In this document: positions 714-17,555 of the stretch, one piece after another
Layout of the letters: each line of letters begins with the position of its first letter
Numbering within the stretch: the first letter of the stretch is position 1
DNA from: a virus
Taxonomy: Duplodnaviria; Heunggongvirae; Uroviricota; Caudoviricetes
DNA length: 18,320 nucleotides
Strand: one strand, 5' to 3'
IMG/VR virus record: IMGVR_UViG_2728369556_000002
The notes under the pieces: generated by a model
What the model was told of the DNA's origin: nothing
Database searches by the model: none
The model's input: the letters and a program-made list of their open reading frames with translations, nothing else
Translations under genes and position numbers: made by a program

Positions 714-3700
714 CCCGACGCGATGACTGCATAATTGACACAACCCTGCTGTCGATCAGATCCACCAGTCCCCTGGCTGAGCGCGCATCTATCTCGCCAT
801 TGCTCCCTTGATTCTGAATGCTGATGTGATACACGGGAGAATAAACAAATCCACCGCCACCATTCACATCTCCAATGGCCCTGACCCCAAGAGAGCCGTC
901 CGCTGCCCGTGTCAGTGGCATGATTGCTTCAGGCCCGGCCTCGCCCATCAACCCGGCCCCCTTCGCAAAAGCAAAATACGTCGGTGTATCCACAATAGTG
1001 TTACTGTAAGCACTCAGATTTGCCGATGTGTAAACACCACCTTTTGCGTTTGCCACTGCCCCCGAAATCCATCCGCCGACCGTACCAAGCCACCCTCCGG
1101 CACCGGAGAGTGATTTCAGTCCGTTAACAATGGCTGCATTCATCAGAATTTTTGAAACTTCCCGGAGAACTGAACTCCCCCAGTTCCTCCAGTCCACAAC
1201 ATTTCCGGCCAGTGCATCGGAAATATTTGATACCAGCCCGTCCATAGTGGAAACGACAGCATCTGCCGCCTGCGAAGCATAATCGGTGGCACTGTCTGCC
1301 CAGTTGGTCAGCCCCTCCTGGAGTCCTGCATTCCAGTTATTACGTAAAGCATCGGCCTTTGCATAATAATCCTGCTGATCGCTGAGACGCTCTTCCAGAT
1401 ATTTTTTATTCAGTTCTTTCTCCTGTTTCCACAGGGCTTCTTCAATTTCTCCGGCCTGATACTGTCTCAGCAGCTCGTTATTTTTCTGCTCAAACTCATG
1501 CCGGATACTCCACATTTCCTGGAGTCGTTCACGCATCCGTGAGCCTTCACCATATCCCAGTAACTGCGCGTCGTTAGACGCCCGGGTACTGGCATTACTG
1601 TCCGCCAGGCTGCTTTCATACGCAGCAAGCTGCTCACGAATCTTTTTCTGGTCGATGAGTGCTGCATTCTGCAAAAGCGTTTTTTTCTGCGCTTCTGACA
1701 GGGTTGATAATTCGCCCTGACTGACCTGATATTTCATCTTAGCCAGTTCAGTATTCTGCCCTGCCAGTGCTATCTGTTCTTTTTGCTGTTTAATCAGCCG
1801 TTTATAAATATCTTCTGTTTTTTCCGCTTCGGTCTTTTTATGCGCTTTGGGTTTATTTGCCTGGTTATTTCGCCAGGCATCCAGTGAGTTATTGATATAA
1901 TTCTGTCTGGCTGTCTGATACGCCTCTCCCACAAAGCCAAGATCATCCGCAGCATAGCCCAGTCGAGCACGCTCACGCGCTTCCCCCTTAAGGCGGGACA
2001 GAGCCAGTTCGCGCTTGCTGTTATTCAGTGCGGTCTGCTGTTTATCATCCAGGGTTGCCTGTGGTAGCCGTAACGGTACATTCACCAACCCCTGTCGCTG
2101 CTGAAGTAATTCATTACCAAGCCCAAGAAGGCGATTAAACTCGGTATGCTGCCCATTCATGATCAACAGGGACTGATACGCTTTGTTTTGTTCCGCCGCC
2201 TGTTGACGGATCAACGCAACCCGCCGCTCCTCCAGCCCGGCAAGCACATCCTGAATGGATTGCGCTTTGCCCTGCATTTGTGTGAGACGGGACTGTTCAA
2301 CTGCCAGTTGATTTGTTGCTTCTGCAAGCCCTTCTGTGACTGTTTTTACCGACGTCATGTGGTTAATCATAAAACCGTTATCGGTTGTCCAGCCCGGGTT
2401 TGCCAGCACATACTGATAGCCAGCAATTTTTTCCTGTAAGGATTTAATCTTACTTTTCTGCTCGTCAATTAACCTGTTTTGCTCATCAAGTGCCTGCCGC
2501 GTCTTTTCCTCATTATCTGACGCTTCAGGAAGCGACATTGCCGACGTTTTCTGGCGAATTTCGTCGATTGTTGCGGCATACTGGCGTGCAGATTCTCTGG
2601 CCTGCTCCTGATTCTGATACATCGTGTACCAGGCCGTCGCCCCCAGCATGACGAGTCCCGGCACACCACCAACCAGCCCCAGCGCACCACTTAACAGACG
2701 ACTCCCCACTGACGTGACAGTATTCAGCGTTGTCTGCGCCGCTGTTCTGGCCGCAATATTACGGGTAAGTGACGCCTGAGCAGCTGTCAGCTTCGCTTCT
2801 GCTGCGGCCTGCCTTTCGGTACCGCGAGCAGCAACAACCGCCTGTTGCGCACGATAAACCGCCGCACGCGCTCTGGCGGTTGCTATCTGTGTCCCCCGAA
2901 GTTGCGCTTCAGCAAGAGCCACTTCGTTTCTGGCTGCAGTAATTAATCCGGCAGTTGCAGATCCAGCAGACGACGCCATATTGCCAAAATATCGGGCTAC
3001 CCCGACGGCAACCAGTGCGCCAGCTGCAGCAGCCACGGTATCAATATTGTCTGCAACACCATTCAGCACACCGGAGAGTGTCTTTGTCACTCCGCTTGCC
3101 TCGTTCGCACCACCAACCCAGGCCATAAAGGCGTTTTCAACTTTGGTTGCAGAGGATGAAACAGTATCAGGCATTGCTGCATATTCATCACGCAACGCCC
3201 CAAGCTGACTAATCAGTGCAGGAACAACCTTATCGGCGGTCAGTTTTCCGTTATCCGCCATGGCCTTCAGATCCTTACGGGCAACCCCCATTCCCGCAGC
3301 CAGCGCACGAATAACACGATCGCCGTTCTCATTCACCGAGTTAAACTCTTCACCGCGCAGCACTCCCTGCGCCAGTGCCTGACTGAACTGCATGATCACC
3401 GAACTGGCTTCTGCTGTACTGGCACCGGATAATTTCAGGCCCGTGGAGATCGCCTCGGTGACTTTCAGTACCTCCTCAGAACTGTAACCATACTCCCGCA
3501 TGGAAGCTGCAGAACGGGCAAAAAGGCTGGCGTTATCAGAAAACGCCGTCCCCGTTCTCTGGCTGATCGCCATTAATTCACGCTGTGATGCCTGAAAATC
3601 ATCACTGGACTGTGAGGCCTGCTTCAGACGGGCATTTACTGAATTCCACTCATCGGCGAGAGAAATAAGATGACCGGTAGCAAAAGCCCCGGCAAATGCC

Positions 3701-8177: not shown

Positions 8178-8724
8178 TTATGCATTAAGAAGGGTCAAAA
8201 GGCGCTCACGCGCCATTCGTTCATTAACAGCTTTCTTCAGCGCACCACTCGCCCGCGCTTCCTGCCAGGCTTTCATTGAGCGGACACCGGAGTCTGCGTC
8301 CTGATAGGCCGGATATGTCACCGGGCTGACGTCATACAGACGAGAAATGCGCGTGATTTCCCGGATAACAATCCCCTCGTCGTCTTCATACCAGCTCTCT
8401 CCGTCACGGGCGACACGAAACGCGAACGAGGACTGGTTAATGTCACCACGCAACATTGGAGACAGCACCAGGTCACAAATAGTCGGAGTATCCGGTGCAA
8501 CAATGTCATAACGTAAACCGCGTTCATCCACCGACAATGACAATGTGCCGGCAGAACTTCGTCCGAGAATGAAATTAGGATCATGATTAAACAAGCCACG
8601 TACATCATCATTCAGTACATCATCAAAAGCCCCCGGCTTGATGATTTCACGAAATCCCCACAGAGGTTCTGAACGACTGTTAAATACCGAGCCATACCCC
8701 AGAATGTGGGTCGGGCATTATCAT
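8178..8724 (-). CDS. prohead protease (HK97 / S78 family) with an apparent frame break at the 5' end
   Basis: The protease frame is open from 8717 to 8178 (...ILGYGSVFNSRSEPLWGFREIIKPGAFDD...NHD...) but has no ATG, GTG or TTG before the TTG at 8594. The only ATGs with a ribosome-binding site (8724 and 8718) are in the +1 frame and stop after 14 codons. Confidence 0.75.
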
Positions 8725-8768
8725 ATTGTTCCGCCCGCACCTCCCCGCTGTAACAGCGCGTTTCACGG

Positions 8769-9995
8769 TCATTCATCGTTCTTTTCCTCTTTGCCTTTCG
8801 TATCTTTAAAGTTATTCAACGGATTTGCTGCATTTACGCTGACCAGCATTTCATCCAGACCGTCAACCGGGTTCATATCCTCAAATGCCCTGGCTTCATT
8901 CCGACTCATCCAGCCATCTGTAATGGCAAAGTGATAGAACTGCGCACGCTCCTGTGGGGTCCCACGGAGCAACCCCGTGAGGTTAAAACGAACGTAATAC
9001 CCGGCAGCCCGTTCTGTACGGGTAAACAGGCGACGGTTAAGCTCCTGCTCCCAGTTCGCAACCCAGGGCATCATCGTGTAGCGAACAAACTGAATCGCCT
9101 GCTGCGTAATATTCGAAAATGTGGCTTTTTCCAGGTCATTAATCATGTGCGCCGGGACATTAAAAATCCCTGCAATCATCGACCTGTTCAGCTTGGTCAT
9201 ATCAATGATCTGAGCATCCACCGGAGAAACTGTCAGAGCGCGGTAATCCAGTTGCGCAGGCAACAGCATGGTTTTATTTTCCTGGCTGCGAAGCGCTGTC
9301 ACCGCCCGCTGCCACATATTTTTAAGCCTGCCCCAGCTCTGTTCGTTCAGTTCATTTTTCACAGAAATAATACCGGCAGGACGGGCATTACCGTTAAAAA
9401 AGGCGCTGGTATACTGCTGGCCACTCATTCCCATACCAATGGTTTCAGCATGCTGCATGATCGGGCTCAGTCCCATTTTCTGATTGTTTCCCAGCGCCCT
9501 GATATGGATCATGTCGTCCGGACTTACCGCAAATGCACCCTCTTCGTTATACACCCCGTAAGTATGACGCCCACCGGTGTTAAGTAACGTGGTTTCCCAT
9601 GGCATACAGCATTCAAGGCTGGTAACCTCTCCACGACGATTACGTTTTACCCACGTATAACCATTGCCCCACCCCAGCACATGACGCTGCTTCAGTTCCC
9701 GCCACTTATAGCTGGTCTGCCAGGCATTAGGTTCATCATGAACGAGCCAGAACAACGGATGATCGCGTGCAGGCTGAACATGCTCATTCGTTTTTCGCAT
9801 CACATGCAGGGGCATCTGAGCCACACTGGATGAAATAACATAAATACAGGCATAGACAGCAGCCAGCTTCATGGATGTTTCCGGACTGACATACACATCC
9901 CGGGCAAAAATATTATCCGTCTCAGCGGCCTCTCCGGTTACCGGAACCGAGGGATTTTCCAGAGACTCACTGCGAAACAGAGCATCAAGAAGCAT
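8769..9995 (-). CDS. portal protein, HK97 family
   Basis: 408-aa ORF with AGGAGA ribosome-binding site, directly downstream of large terminase. Confidence 0.92.
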   Translation of the reverse strand: MLLDALFRSESLENPSVPVTGEAAETDNIFARDVYVSPETSMKLAAVYACIYVISSSVAQMPLHVMRKTNEHVQPARDHPLFWLVHDEPNAWQTSYKWRELKQRHVLGWGNGYTWVKRNRRGEVTSLECCMPWETTLLNTGGRHTYGVYNEEGAFAVSPDDMIHIRALGNNQKMGLSPIMQHAETIGMGMSGQQYTSAFFNGNARPAGIISVKNELNEQSWGRLKNMWQRAVTALRSQENKTMLLPAQLDYRALTVSPVDAQIIDMTKLNRSMIAGIFNVPAHMINDLEKATFSNITQQAIQFVRYTMMPWVANWEQELNRRLFTRTERAAGYYVRFNLTGLLRGTPQERAQFYHFAITDGWMSRNEARAFEDMNPVDGLDEMLVSVNAANPLNNFKDTKGKEEKNDE

Positions 9996-10125
9996 GTTTT
10001 CTCCTCATGGACACTACCAGTGCATAAAGCAGCAACAAACAGCCCGACAGCATCAGAGACGCTGGCAGACCTGCATACAGATAAACGCCAGCAGTGAGCA
10101 AACCGAAACCGATCAGCCCGGTCAT
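9985..10125 (-). CDS. hypothetical small hydrophobic protein (46 aa) between large terminase and portal
   Basis: Found by manual translation: MTGLIGFGLLTAGVYLYAGLPASLMLSGCLLLLYALVVSMRRKHAS. Its stop overlaps the portal start. No clear ribosome-binding site. Below the ORF-track length cutoff. Confidence 0.3.
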   Translation of the reverse strand: MTGLIGFGLLTAGVYLYAGLPASLMLSGCLLLLYALVVSMRRKHAS

Positions 10126-10142
10126 ATCAGTAATAAGCTGTT

Positions 10143-11900
10143 TCACAGAATTAACAGGTCCTCATCAGGATCAAGCGTGGACAGAAAGTCATTCACGCCC
10201 CCGCCATTTACCAGAAAGCGGCTCATGGCCGTAAAAAGCGCAACAGGGCCGTCGATTTTGGCTTCAGGCGTGGATTTATTCGGGAAGATGTTGTCGTTTT
10301 TGTCCGGTTTTACCGTAACGTTAGACATCATCCAGTTCATGACCGGATGATTGCTGTGATGGAAACGCCCGGCATAAACCAGTGATTCCGTTTCCTTCAT
10401 GGCCTCTGACAGATTGCGGACCGTCTGCGGAACCTCCACCAGCGGTATCCCTTCTTCAGCCAGTGCCAGGCTGAACTGCATTGCGCTCCACGGGTCAAAT
10501 CCCAGTTCCCTGAGGTTTTCACCGCCAATCCATTCCAGTAAGTCACTTTTTATCTGAGCATGATCGATAACATCACCATCCGTCAGGATGAGCTTATCCA
10601 TCTCCGCCCACTTCCGGTAAAGTTCTGCCTGCTGCCGCGAGCATCGCTCCAGCCGTCCTTCCGGAAGCCAGAATTTAAAATCAGCATGAACATGTCCGTT
10701 ATCGGTTCGCCAGAGTTTTGCCGCCGCACAGATATCAATCTTATGAGCAAGGTCGACGCCGACCCACATGGGATATGTTTTCAGCTCATGTTGTGGAGCA
10801 ATGTATTCGCACTTCTCCCACTTAATCATATCCATCCAGGCAGATTCGGCAGTGACCCACACATTCATGTGTTTGGTAAAAAAATTCACCCGCGCAGAGA
10901 CCTGCTCCTTCGCTTTTTTCGCCAGACGACGCAGATCATCCCAGCGTTTACAGATGCCCAGGCCAGGATTCGCTTTCTGCCAGACCGTTTCATCAAACGG
11001 ATCATCTCCCTCATCGAGCGTGTAAATGATCGCAAAGTAGGAGTCGTCTTTTACCGCGCCCTCCACGTCGCTGTTATAGCCTCGCAATACCTTAATGGCG
11101 TAATCGCGCTGCTCGTAGCAAATCCCTTCCTTGTTAAAGCCAGCCGTGGTGATGCCAAATAACAGAGACTGCAGACGGGCACCGGTTGCCGTTTCCAGAA
11201 CGTCCCACACGTCACGGGTTTTATGAGCATGCAGCTCATCAATAATGGCGCAGTGGATGTTCAGACCGTCCAGGTTGTTTGCATCCGAGGAAAGCGGTTC
11301 AAATTTTGATGCGCTCTGCTCCTGGTAAATCGCCAGCTTGTTGAAATCAAACAACCGCCCGAGTGTCGACCGGGCTTTTCTGACCATATTTTTGGCGTCT
11401 TCAAACACAATTCTGGCCTGGTCACGCGTGGTTGCGGCTGAATACACCTCAGCCCCGCCTTCACCATCTGCCCCCGTCATATACAGACCGATACCCGATG
11501 ACAGGGTTGATTTTGCGTTTTTACGGGCAACTTCGTTGTATGCTGTCCGGAACCGGCGCACCATCACCGGGCGTCCACTGCCATCGCTGCGCATGACAAC
11601 TTCCCCGGTTTCTTCATTCACCAGCGGAATGACAAAACCAAAAATATTAATGAGGATAAACACATGCCAGTCCATCAACTCAATGGGCTGACCTGCCAGC
11701 GCCCCTTTCACATGGGGTACAAATTTGTAGAAATTAAGGATGTGCTGTGCACGGGGTTCACTGAAATAAATCCCCCGCTCTTCGCCGTACTTCAGATCAT
11801 CAAGAAAACGCTGGCAGGCCAGACGGACAAATTCGCCAGCAACAATTTCTCCTGCAACAACACGTTCGGCGTAGCGGATCCCGTCAGCCACTTTTGCCAT
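10143..11900 (-). CDS. terminase large subunit
   Basis: 585-aa ORF whose ATG overlaps the stop of the small terminase C-terminal frame (TGATGG). Sequence character matches the terminase ATPase/nuclease family. Confidence 0.95.
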   Translation of the reverse strand: MAKVADGIRYAERVVAGEIVAGEFVRLACQRFLDDLKYGEERGIYFSEPRAQHILNFYKFVPHVKGALAGQPIELMDWHVFILINIFGFVIPLVNEETGEVVMRSDGSGRPVMVRRFRTAYNEVARKNAKSTLSSGIGLYMTGADGEGGAEVYSAATTRDQARIVFEDAKNMVRKARSTLGRLFDFNKLAIYQEQSASKFEPLSSDANNLDGLNIHCAIIDELHAHKTRDVWDVLETATGARLQSLLFGITTAGFNKEGICYEQRDYAIKVLRGYNSDVEGAVKDDSYFAIIYTLDEGDDPFDETVWQKANPGLGICKRWDDLRRLAKKAKEQVSARVNFFTKHMNVWVTAESAWMDMIKWEKCEYIAPQHELKTYPMWVGVDLAHKIDICAAAKLWRTDNGHVHADFKFWLPEGRLERCSRQQAELYRKWAEMDKLILTDGDVIDHAQIKSDLLEWIGGENLRELGFDPWSAMQFSLALAEEGIPLVEVPQTVRNLSEAMKETESLVYAGRFHHSNHPVMNWMMSNVTVKPDKNDNIFPNKSTPEAKIDGPVALFTAMSRFLVNGGGVNDFLSTLDPDEDLLIL

Positions 11901-15138: not shown

Positions 15139-15354
15139 TTACTCTCCCCGTGCCGCCTTACGACGGTCCTCTCTGATTTTGAAATACAGGTTAGTCAGAT
15201 ATGTCAGCAGCCCAAACAGCAGACTCCCCAGCACGCCTATTGCCGCCCACTGAGACGGGGAAACCCTGTCCAGCAACTGCAGGAACCAGTAGCCCGTTCC
15301 CACCGCTGACGTGGTGTATGACACACCTGTTGTGATTTTTTCCATCTGGTCCAT
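15139..15354 (-). CDS. class II holin / pinholin (phage 21 S-like), dual-start
   Basis: ORF track 15139..15459. Real start is the ATG at 15354 ([10 protein letters not shown]..., 71 aa) with GGGAGA upstream. Two in-frame Met codons at positions 1 and 4. C-terminus ...[30 protein letters not shown]. Confidence 0.88.
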
Positions 15355-15386
15355 ACCCCGTCTCCCGTTATCCGGAAGCTGACAAC

Positions 15387-16466: not shown

Positions 16467-16640
16467 AAAATCAATATAAACAGCCCCTCCGGAGAGGGGC
16501 TGGAGAGTGGCGCTATGTGCCATTGCATGGTGCCGGGTGCCTCCCGGTGAATTCAGTACCAGCACCTGAATCCGCGATTATCCCATATACCTACTCGCTG
16601 ATTACCCCTCCGCACAGGGGGATTCACCATGCGAAATTTT
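16467..16640 (-). ncRNA. candidate structured small RNA, copy A
   Basis: Minus strand shows promoter-like boxes (TTGTCT, 18 nt, TGTTAAAAA), a 5' arm GCATGGTG, internal hairpins, a 3' arm CACCATGC, then terminator AGCCCCTC-TCCG-GAGGGGCT with a U-rich tail. Paralogous to copy B. Confidence 0.3.
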
Positions 16641-16935
16641 TTAACAAACTTCCCGCCGGCCAGACAATAATCGCCAGCCTGAATTATGAGCAACGTGGCA
16701 TTTTACGGGAAAACTGTTTTCTGCAGTAAAAAGGCCCGCCGGAGCGAGCCTGGAAGGATAGCGGTCATGTGATGCCGGTTTCCCGGTAACTCAGCATCGG
16801 TATCTGAGTCAACGTTTTCTCTACTGGGTCATTTCCGATACGTTCCGCCTTCCGGCAGACTTTCATCACGTCAGAAAATATAGCACCCTGAGTAACAGGA
16901 CAGTACTCAGAATTCAGGAAACTGTGACACATCCT

Positions 16936-17110
16936 GCACAGAAAAGCCCCTCCGGAGAGGGGCTGAAGTATAGCCTAATTTCTGTCTGTCGCATGGTGCC
17001 AGGGGCCTCCCGGTAAATTCAGCCTGTCTACTGAATTTGCATGTTCTCTGGATCATACACTTTGCCAGATGCCCCGCCGCTGAGGGGGATTCACCATGCG
17101 ATGTAATTTT
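16936..17110 (-). ncRNA. candidate structured small RNA, copy B
   Basis: Same block architecture as copy A, with identical terminator hairpin and promoter-like boxes but divergent loops and linkers. Confidence 0.3.
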
Positions 17111-17302
17111 TAACAAATTCTCCGGCAGCCAGACAATCATCAAGCTGTGGAATTGTGAGGTATTTAAAAATTTCAACGGGTAACTGATACCCTGCTAATC
17201 GCCTGATGCTTTCTTTTTCAGCAACGGGAAAGCAACAACCACACACCCGCCACCAAAACACCATCAGACAGCACCGACATTATCCGGCTGCTGAAGTCCA
17301 CC

Positions 17303-17479: not shown

Positions 17480-17555
17480 TGGTGGCCCTTGCTGGATTTG
17501 AACCAGCGACCTGGCGATTATGAGTCGCTCGCTCTCACCACTGAGCTAAAGGGCC
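17480..17555 (-). tRNA. tRNA with anticodon CAU, closest to tRNA-Ile2 (lysidine type); tRNA-Met not excluded
   Basis: 76-nt minus-strand sequence folds by hand into a cloverleaf: 7-bp acceptor stem GGCCCTT/AAGGGCC, D-arm GCTC..GAGC, anticodon loop CTCATAA, T-arm GCTGG TTCAAAT CCAGC, encoded 3' CCA. Closely resembles E. coli ileX as I recall it. Confidence 0.88.

Follow-up and report, generated by a model that had tools for sequence, protein, structure and literature searches.

A small membrane-protein gene between the large terminase and portal genes of an HK97-like Escherichia coli prophage

What, if anything, is encoded between the large terminase (TerL) and portal genes of the tailed-phage genome in IMG/VR record IMGVR_UViG_2728369556_000002, and what might its product do? 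The window, i.e., the whole 18,320-nucleotide (nt) stretch of DNA that was analyzed, provides the positions used throughout; TerL, portal and the open reading frame (ORF) between them, here called the small ORF, all lie on its minus strand. The TerL stop codon (TGA, 10143–10145) is separated from the portal ATG (9993–9995) by 147 nt, which is the gap given in the original prediction, a reading by a model from the letters alone. That prediction placed in the gap an unannotated, very hydrophobic frame of 46 codons and left it as either a membrane-targeted cargo or toxin-like peptide or a chance frame. A hydrophobic ORF is indeed present. The evidence set out below indicates that it is almost certainly a real membrane-protein gene, of 53 codons, and a role for its product is tentatively proposed.

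An open frame of 53 codons has a chance of about 0.08 at this base composition. Openness alone is therefore unremarkable, and it is conservation that decides whether the frame is a gene. By megablast, the region is found in 929 of 5426 complete E. coli genomes. The PGAP annotation of the 162-nt frame is WP_000811487.1, a hypothetical protein, with an identical coding sequence in E. coli M217 and many other genomes. tblastn and annotated records locate a 162-nt ORF, with a 4-nt TerL overlap (ATGA) and an 11-nt portal overlap, in Morganella phage IME1369_02, Edwardsiella phage EPP-1, and Klebsiella phage vB_VIPKPNMC05. The same ORF is present, unannotated, in Shigella phage SfV, and a high-GC Ralstonia phage has a clearly homologous ORF of 52–54 amino acids (aa) at the same place. 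A set of 174 related loci was assembled from 80 found via the peptide, 80 found via the portal protein alone, and phage and genome records; the frame is intact in all 174 (E. coli, Klebsiella, Morganella, Edwardsiella, Shigella SfV, and others).

The substitutions in these sequences have the pattern of a coding sequence. Thirteen distinct DNA versions from the E. coli clade differ at 13 sites, 11 of which are synonymous, and the two replacements, T18A and M32I, are conservative (binomial p ~2e-5). Among 36 unique 162-nt sequences, third codon positions are the most variable, and the median pairwise ratio of nonsynonymous to synonymous substitution rates (dN/dS) is 0.27 in the frame versus 1.0 and 1.7 in the shifted frames. 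The alternative frames, shifted and reverse-strand, are mostly interrupted, with stops in 32–36 of the 36 sequences. At the same loci, portal and TerL have a dN/dS of ~0.03. The peptide is thus under purifying selection, about ten times looser than that on its neighbors. The comparison that the original prediction had proposed, of synonymous with nonsynonymous change and of stops and frameshifts among relatives, has come out in favor of a gene, and the chance frame it had allowed for is rejected. The idea of an RNA element was also rejected, as Rfam has nothing at the locus and the RNA folding z-score there, -0.84, is unremarkable. A few singleton database proteins (P0100, P0101, and P0108) and C-terminal variants (P0005, P0006, P0010, and P0012) look frameshifted or fused, as expected of decaying prophages or sequencing errors.

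The setting of the small ORF is a head and packaging module on the minus strand. From the ORF list, the RefSeq annotation of the identical prophage in E. coli M217, Pfam, and TIGR01537, its genes run in the order HNH endonuclease, P27-family small terminase, TerL, portal, prohead protease, and major capsid protein, which is typical of HK97-like phages. The window prophage is an E. coli HK97-like lambdoid prophage with a P27-type terminase.

Where does the gene start? The original prediction took an internal ATG, at codon 8 of the frame; this start gives exactly the peptide quoted there, 46 codons long, and the stop, TGA 9985–9987, falls 11 nt inside the portal gene, so that the overlap with the portal start stands as described. 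The frame is open farther upstream, to a GTG, and its length is corrected to 53 codons. The GTG model is preferred because every non-E. coli homologue has an ATG exactly at the position of the window's GTG, because codons 2–7 in E. coli (KQLITD) still fit the MKxLIxD consensus of the family (D7 invariant, K2 almost so), and because Met8 is confined to the E. coli clade. For the last two reasons, the 46-codon start is judged less likely. No well-placed Shine-Dalgarno sequence precedes the GTG; the sole candidate, GAGGA, is 12 nt upstream, and as relatives have GAAGA or GATGA there, the motif is not conserved. The earlier remark that there is no obvious ribosome-binding site thus holds for the ATG and, for the GTG, has to be qualified by this unconserved GAGGA. 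Given the (A/G)TGA overlap, ATGA in relatives where the window has GTGA, and the lack of a well-placed Shine-Dalgarno, termination-reinitiation coupling with TerL best accounts for how the small ORF is initiated.

At its other end, the small ORF is equally tied to portal. The 11-nt overlap is annotated identically in the Morganella, Edwardsiella, and Klebsiella phages. The Shine-Dalgarno of portal lies within codons of the small ORF, and relatives have AGGGGG or GGAGG at that position; the AGGAG bases of the window are dual-purpose, serving as small-ORF codons and as the portal ribosome-binding site. The basic tail noted in the original prediction is present and is in part a by-product of this site, since the Arg codons encode it. 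Because its start overlaps the TerL stop while its end overlaps the portal start and holds the portal Shine-Dalgarno, the small ORF is the middle member of a translation chain, TerL to small ORF to portal, inside the late operon. Near 9985–10146, a scan of the minus strand found nothing promoter-like or terminator-like. The GC content of the small ORF is 0.488, compared with 0.514 for TerL and 0.500 for portal, so its composition is not anomalous. Expression with the late genes, as originally suggested, would be expected from the position in the packaging and head module. Coordinates are collected in Table 1.

The portal start is misplaced in one record. In SfV (NC_003444; L003), the small ORF, at 2289–2450, is unannotated, and portal, at 2392–3666, is started 48 nt early, inside the small ORF; the conserved start with its Shine-Dalgarno is at 2440. 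A portal start upstream, as annotated in SfV, was rejected, as an ATG or GTG behind the Shine-Dalgarno is conserved at the downstream position.

Table 1. The TerL–small ORF–portal junction and its features, in window positions.
Feature	Position	Strand	Description
TerL	10143..11900	-	585 aa; PF03354 ATPase domain and PF20441 nuclease domain
TerL C-terminal tail	10143..10190	-	DFLSTLDPDEDLLIL plus stop; inherited with small ORF and portal, not with the TerL body
GTGA overlap	10143..10146	-	small-ORF GTG 10144-10146 on TerL TGA 10143-10145; translational-coupling junction
Small ORF	9985..10146	-	53 codons plus stop (VKQLITDMTGLIGFGLLTAGVYLYAGLPASLMLSGCLLLLYALVVSMRRKHAS, then stop); predicted two-helix membrane microprotein; PHROG 7105; RefSeq WP_000811487.1
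Internal ATG (Met8)	10123..10125	-	start taken in the original prediction; Met here only in the E. coli clade, V, L, I or A elsewhere
Predicted helix 1	10072..10125	-	residues ~8-25; Gly-rich, moderately hydrophobic; G13, G20, G26 invariant; G15, Y22, L23 nearly so
Predicted helix 2	10006..10059	-	residues ~30-47; strongly hydrophobic; L31, G35, L43, A46 nearly invariant
Portal Shine-Dalgarno AGGAG	10001..10005	-	5 nt upstream of portal ATG; within the Arg48-Arg49 codons (AGG AGA) of the small ORF
3′ overlap with portal	9985..9995	-	11 nt; end of small ORF on first portal codons (ATGCTTCTTGA)
Portal	8769..9995	-	HK97-family, 408 aa; TIGR01537, E = 8.8e-97

What kind of protein is made? The grand average of hydropathy of the 53-residue peptide is 0.99, with two hydrophobic segments, a moderate, Gly-rich one at residues ~8–25 and a strong one at ~30–47. 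AlphaFold, supplied with an 81-sequence alignment, predicts helixes at 2–25 and 27–51 forming a helix-turn-helix hairpin (mean predicted local distance difference test score, pLDDT, 84). The original description of a very hydrophobic peptide with one or two predicted transmembrane segments is thereby borne out. In the 81-member alignment, M1, D7, G13, G20, and G26 are invariant, and K2, L11, G15, Y22, L23, L31, G35, L43, and A46 are conserved in at least 90% of members. The conserved core is the predicted bilayer-embedded hairpin, which has a small-residue face. The charges of Lys2 and of RRK48–50 suggest that both ends face the cytoplasm. Comparisons with characterized proteins gave little. 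Foldseek, run with the AlphaFold hairpin against BFVD, returned no match at E <= 0.001, only other uncharacterized hairpins; a PDB sequence search with the family profile gave nothing at E <= 1; and scans of the peptide with Pfam, NCBIfam, and PADLOC assigned no family, Pfam being empty at E <= 1. One analogue gave a sub-threshold DUF2244 match only. Nothing in the PADLOC, Pfam, and NCBIfam scans speaks for the cargo or toxin-like function that had been suggested.

The gene does have relatives. The small ORF belongs to PHROG 7105, which is filed as unknown function; it matches the profile with E = 1.9e-19 and 70.2 bits, residues 1–52 aligning with profile positions 1–52 of 52, and it has the length and placement of that family, ~53 aa, immediately following TerL and running into the portal gene. 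Coupling to TerL is also seen in the metagenomic members L180 and L181. A profile search of 5.8 billion proteins found ~100 clusters at 90% identity across Enterobacterales, nearly all exactly 53 aa and all named hypothetical, among them ones from Escherichia, Shigella, Klebsiella, Citrobacter, Morganella, Edwardsiella, Pantoea, Pectobacteriaceae, Arsenophonus, and Symbiopectobacterium. Searched with a single sequence, the family is small: phmmer against 1.84 billion representatives gave 20 hits at 50%-identity clustering. A scan of genome contigs found 8 loci only. As a sequence object, the small ORF is thus already known, through RefSeq and PHROG 7105, and was not unannotated as first supposed. 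It is missing from the annotation of some records despite its presence, SfV NC_003444 being an example. The literature searched contains no paper that characterizes or discusses it.

Two side observations concern members of the family. In one E. coli lineage, the protein P0004 (81 aa; locus L080, 97–243) has its first four residues replaced by a 32-residue N-terminus (MQAEILLTLKLQQKLFADPRRISLLKHIALSG), which looks like the start of ModE; this points to a deletion by which a chromosomal gene was joined to a truncated prophage exactly here. The chromosome of Symbiopectobacterium purcellii MEX (L009–L013) has a 7105-type small ORF at at least 5 separate sites, with identical match statistics (64% identity, residues 1–36), which points to a multi-copy prophage.

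Beyond PHROG 7105, the window peptide matches other profiles more weakly: PHROG 502, labeled "membrane protein", at 1.7e-6; and PHROG 4810 at 6.5e-4. The window family also has a weak match to PHROG 1142, at 0.015. When PHROGs 7105 and 502 are aligned with hhalign, 44 columns match at E = 2e-4 and a probability of 46%, a score that hydrophobic composition bias may inflate. Several survey sequences match the hidden Markov models (HMMs) of both families and so bridge them. The PHROG 502 type occupies the TerL–portal slot in phiP27 (L37), SfII (SfII_03), SfI, SfIV, ST64B (Sb3), phiKO2 (gp3), PY54, and YeP1, and in the records of phiP27, ST64B, and phiKO2, the slot genes are labeled "membrane protein". 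These proteins share with the small ORF the slot, a two-helix hairpin, here of 59–62 aa, and C-terminal codons that bear the portal Shine-Dalgarno (GGAGG within the codons of a terminal GGGK). They differ from it in sequence (~27% identity), in having a longer C-terminal tail and a shorter N-terminus that lacks MKxLIxD, and in a start that is usually ~9–11 nt past the TerL stop, whereas the small ORF overlaps that stop.

Farther afield, Vibrio phage K266 has a 67-aa hairpin ORF in the slot that matches PHROG 7105 at 3e-5, and Burkholderia-type contigs have PHROG 4810 or PHROG 502 types there. In Bacillus phage phi105, ORF24 (L345, 863–1081; 72 aa), which lies between a split large terminase and portal, matches PHROG 1142 at 1e-16 and PHROG 502 at 3.2e-7. 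It is very distant from the small ORF, with an extra N-terminal hydrophobic stretch, its greater length, and a Gram-positive host. Because phi105 ORF24 sits in the TerL–portal slot, the slot-bound membrane microprotein is not confined to Gram-negative hosts. From these sequence comparisons, PHROGs 7105, 502, 4810, and 1142 are likely a single old, fast-evolving superfamily, with homology to PHROG 502 not proven. A membrane peptide had been called unexpected in a packaging module; homologous or analogous slot genes in phiP27, SfII, SfI, SfIV, ST64B, phiKO2, PY54, YeP1, Vibrio phage K266, Ralstonia and Burkholderia prophages, and phi105 indicate otherwise.

How regularly is the slot filled? A survey was made of 159 IMG/VR contigs chosen solely by possession of a related TerL. 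An ORF with one or two hydrophobic segments lies between the TerL stop and portal in 81 of them, 65 of these ORFs being recognized by the 7105 or 502 HMM, and there is none in the other 78. Because of these 78 contigs, the slot gene is an accessory gene, found in about half of the phages with related terminases.

The small ORF is inherited along with particular neighbors. The TerL bodies of SfV (L003) and EPP-1 (L004) are 58% identical to that of YeP1 (L179) and 36% identical to the window TerL. Both phages nevertheless have window-type versions of the final ~15 residues of TerL (DFLSxLDPDxDLLIL), of the small ORF, and of portal (80–83% identity). YeP1, phiP27 (L183), and SfII combine a different TerL tail (LSDHxxSxGIRSL) with a portal type of their own. 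More broadly, the TerL tail goes with the portal type and not with the TerL body, a pattern that would fit a portal-docking tail and a recombination junction just upstream of it. The C-terminus of λ gpA and the TerL tail of HK97 contact portal. On the strength of these contacts and of the co-tracking of tail and portal, the TerL tail, the small ORF, and portal look like a co-inherited unit.

The prophage has other features of note. The prohead protease is frameshifted at ~8713–8715 on the minus strand (region 8178–8776), where a C-run reads CCC (AATGCCCGACC) in place of the CCCC of >120 related loci. The protease is split into a 54-aa N-terminal fragment, 8612–8776, and a remainder, 8178–8594, and PGAP flags the same defect in E. 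coli M217. Capsids probably cannot be matured by the window copy. At ~15141–15356 on the minus strand, the prophage encodes a holin of its own, a pinholin of the phage 21 S type (PF04971, E = 9e-33) that is unrelated in sequence to the small ORF, and in the identical prophage of M217, the annotation of the holin region includes an iss/bor-type lipoprotein gene and iraM. After the antiterminator gene and before the lysis genes come two STnc100 small RNAs in tandem (RF02076; 132 and 138 bits), at 16472–16660 and 16936–17129 on the minus strand, and a tRNA, at 17483–17555 on the same strand, given as tRNA-Ile in the RefSeq annotation.

What, then, does the small ORF do? Overall, our best explanation, advanced tentatively and with somewhat less than even confidence, is that a real hairpin gene in the TerL–portal chain encodes a helper of head assembly or packaging. 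In a more specific form, which is possible and in our estimate doubtful, the protein would be a dispensable helper that brings an early step of head morphogenesis or packaging to the inner membrane. This role is favored because the slot is strict across phyla, the gene is coupled to both partners and co-inherited with portal, the order of genes in the operon points the same way, and T4 offers a precedent. In morphogenetic operons, function is usually mirrored in the order of the genes. phiP27, SfII, phiKO2, YeP1, K266, Ralstonia, and phi105 all keep the gene in this slot, and its occurrence in phages of Proteobacteria as well as of Bacillus speaks for a role intrinsic to the phage, not one tied to the host. 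In T4, a connector chaperone anchors the head to the inner membrane, on which it assembles (PMC3185693).

Under this proposal, the peptide would be inserted in the inner membrane with both ends in the cytoplasm. It would be made in small amounts, by reinitiation after TerL, a low abundance suggested by the (A/G)TGA coupling. Within the bilayer, it may act through its glycine-rich packing face (G13, G20, G26, and G35), either by self-association or by contact with a partner membrane protein. The step helped might be portal or prohead initiation, or terminase docking, which would thus be placed at the inner membrane. A bolder generalization is that widespread HK97-like phages, of Proteobacteria and in some cases of Bacillus, encode a dedicated inner-membrane microprotein of two helixes, chained in translation between TerL and portal, by which either portal or prohead initiation or the packaging complex of terminase and portal is tethered to the cytoplasmic membrane; we regard this as unlikely, though worth stating.

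Several points weigh against a role in head assembly or packaging. The ORF is absent even beside closely related terminases and portals. In phi1026b, HK633 (HK97-type), Streptococcus phage Javan630, Pseudomonas phage BR141a, Xanthomonas phage OP1, and Moraxella phage Mcat13, TerL and portal are joined directly or nearly directly, by an ATGA overlap in phi1026b and a 1-nt overlap in HK633. Given this patchy distribution, a core role in assembly is out of the question. Just ~6–7 residues at each end are predicted to be cytoplasmic, and these show no conservation between the 7105 type and the 502 type, so there is little surface for binding soluble TerL or portal. The portal ribosome-binding site, in addition, accounts for some of the conservation of the basic tail. 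The linkage to portal may be passive, the small ORF simply lying between two co-adapted elements, the TerL tail and portal. Nor is a membrane step known to be required by HK97 itself. Finally, in the literature searched, no expression, localization, or phenotype data were found for any family member.

The same hairpin could be read as a modulator of lysis timing or membrane potential, i.e., a late holin-like or antiholin-like protein that perturbs the inner membrane or tunes the trigger of the prophage's own pinholin. The layout resembles that of a class II holin, with two predicted transmembrane helixes, both ends predicted to be cytoplasmic, a weak Gly-rich helix 1, a strong helix 2, and a basic C-terminus. 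Late expression is expected, the conserved core is the membrane-embedded part, and the family, like holins, is found in phages of both Gram-negative and Gram-positive hosts. Still, no relation to the S21-type pinholin is detectable (hhalign probability 0.2%), no Pfam holin family or PHROG of the lysis category is matched, and typical holins have a much longer C-terminal tail. Moreover, a full lysis cassette of pinholin, lysozyme, and lysis protein is already present ~5 kb upstream of TerL. A lysis role is considered improbable.

We rate as a long shot some other accessory function at the membrane late in infection, such as neutralizing a membrane-embedded host defense or protease, or blocking DNA entry by competing phages. 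The slot would then be a recombination-protected site for low, late expression, without connection to head assembly. Patchy presence is typical of accessory genes, and the fast evolution (dN/dS 0.27 versus 0.03 for the neighbors), the concentration of conservation in predicted bilayer residues, the position between a co-adapted TerL tail and portal, and the filing of PHROG 502 under moron, auxiliary metabolic gene and host takeover would all suit such a function. It is harder to reconcile with the use of one slot from Proteobacteria to Bacillus, which is unusual for host-specific accessory genes; further, no PADLOC defense-system model matched, and no candidate target is known.

A moron or superinfection-exclusion gene, expressed in the lysogen in the manner of HK97 gp15 and protecting the host or altering its surface, is very unlikely. 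Small membrane proteins of late operons can, as with HK97 gp15, be exclusion factors expressed by lysogens, and the window prophage keeps the ORF intact despite its frameshifted protease. That intactness is explicable by a recent frameshift, as the protease is intact in >120 relatives. Around the ORF, the coding strand has no sigma-70-like promoter or terminator-like site, the overlaps at both ends leave no room for autonomous signals, and the GTG start has no well-placed Shine-Dalgarno. Nor is the GC content deviant.

It is more improbable still that the ORF acts only in cis, its peptide sequence being irrelevant, either as a translated spacer that hands ribosomes from TerL to portal or as a hydrophobic nascent chain that pulls the late mRNA to the membrane. 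Coupling at both ends, the portal Shine-Dalgarno inside the ORF, and the loose overall constraint would be accounted for, and where the ORF is absent, as in phi1026b and HK633, TerL is coupled directly to portal. A spacer would not, however, be expected to keep D7, G13, G20, G26, Y22, and G35 invariant or nearly so, to hold a length of 53 aa over ~100 clusters, or to have a dN/dS well under 1 in this frame alone. In lambdoid phages, the lysis and head genes are on a single late transcript. With the lysis genes upstream of the head genes, the order seen here, membrane proteins, the holin among them, should already be encoded on the late mRNA.

Lastly, there is a negligible probability that the frame is open by chance or that the spacer between the genes is a non-coding element, either an RNA structure or a DNA site, for the ~8% likelihood of such a frame and its GTG start with a weak Shine-Dalgarno are outweighed by the coding substitution pattern, the 174 intact loci, the stops in the alternative frames, and the unproductive Rfam and folding results. 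Whatever probability remains belongs to functions beyond those listed.

To summarize what is added here, the gene model is a 53-codon GTG gene coupled to the TerL stop, and the evidence that its sequence is translated and under selection is firm. This model and this evidence may be new, as may the proposed union of PHROGs 7105, 502, 4810, and 1142 in a slot-locked superfamily and the co-inheritance with the portal-matching terminase tail. If head assembly or packaging does have a membrane link of this kind, an idea specific to T4 would extend to many temperate phages. If the tether in particular were correct, membrane-associated head assembly would be common, not a T4 peculiarity, and the four PHROGs would be one ancient family of morphogenetic accessory proteins. 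If, instead, the protein is a lysis factor or a host-directed one, it would represent a new class of late membrane effector. Tractable phages for a knockout exist, namely SfV, phiP27, ST64B, phiKO2, and phi105.

The small ORF can be set beside four known systems. HK97 gp15 is, as is predicted for the small-ORF product, a small inner-membrane protein, and its gene is inside the late structural operon of an HK97-like phage. The gp15 gene is located in the tail region and is expressed in lysogens from signals of its own. The small ORF, in contrast, has no detected promoter or terminator and overlaps late genes at both ends. Class II holins, of which the phage 21 S pinholin (PF04971) is one, resemble the small-ORF product in small size, in the predicted layout described above, and in the late expression expected of it; there is no sequence similarity, the small ORF lies outside the lysis cassette, and its C-terminal tail is ~6 residues.

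In λ, the TerL–portal slot is occupied by gpW, a soluble head-completion protein. The predicted fold of the small-ORF product is a hydrophobic hairpin, and hhalign of the family against a λ gpW sequence entered by hand gave a probability of 0.3%. In automatically annotated E. coli and Salmonella phage records (H113, H131, H137, and H140), a 502-type ORF is named 'head-tail joining protein W'. As there is no detectable similarity to λ gpW, this label is most likely a positional mis-annotation that is spreading.

The functional model for the favored role is the membrane-bound portal (connector) chaperone of T4, gp40, a membrane protein that helps to start head assembly at the portal vertex. No relation in sequence or size is expected between it and the small-ORF product, and the T4 gene is not located between TerL and portal. 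Any likeness would be functional only: in both cases, a membrane protein would help the head to begin at the portal.

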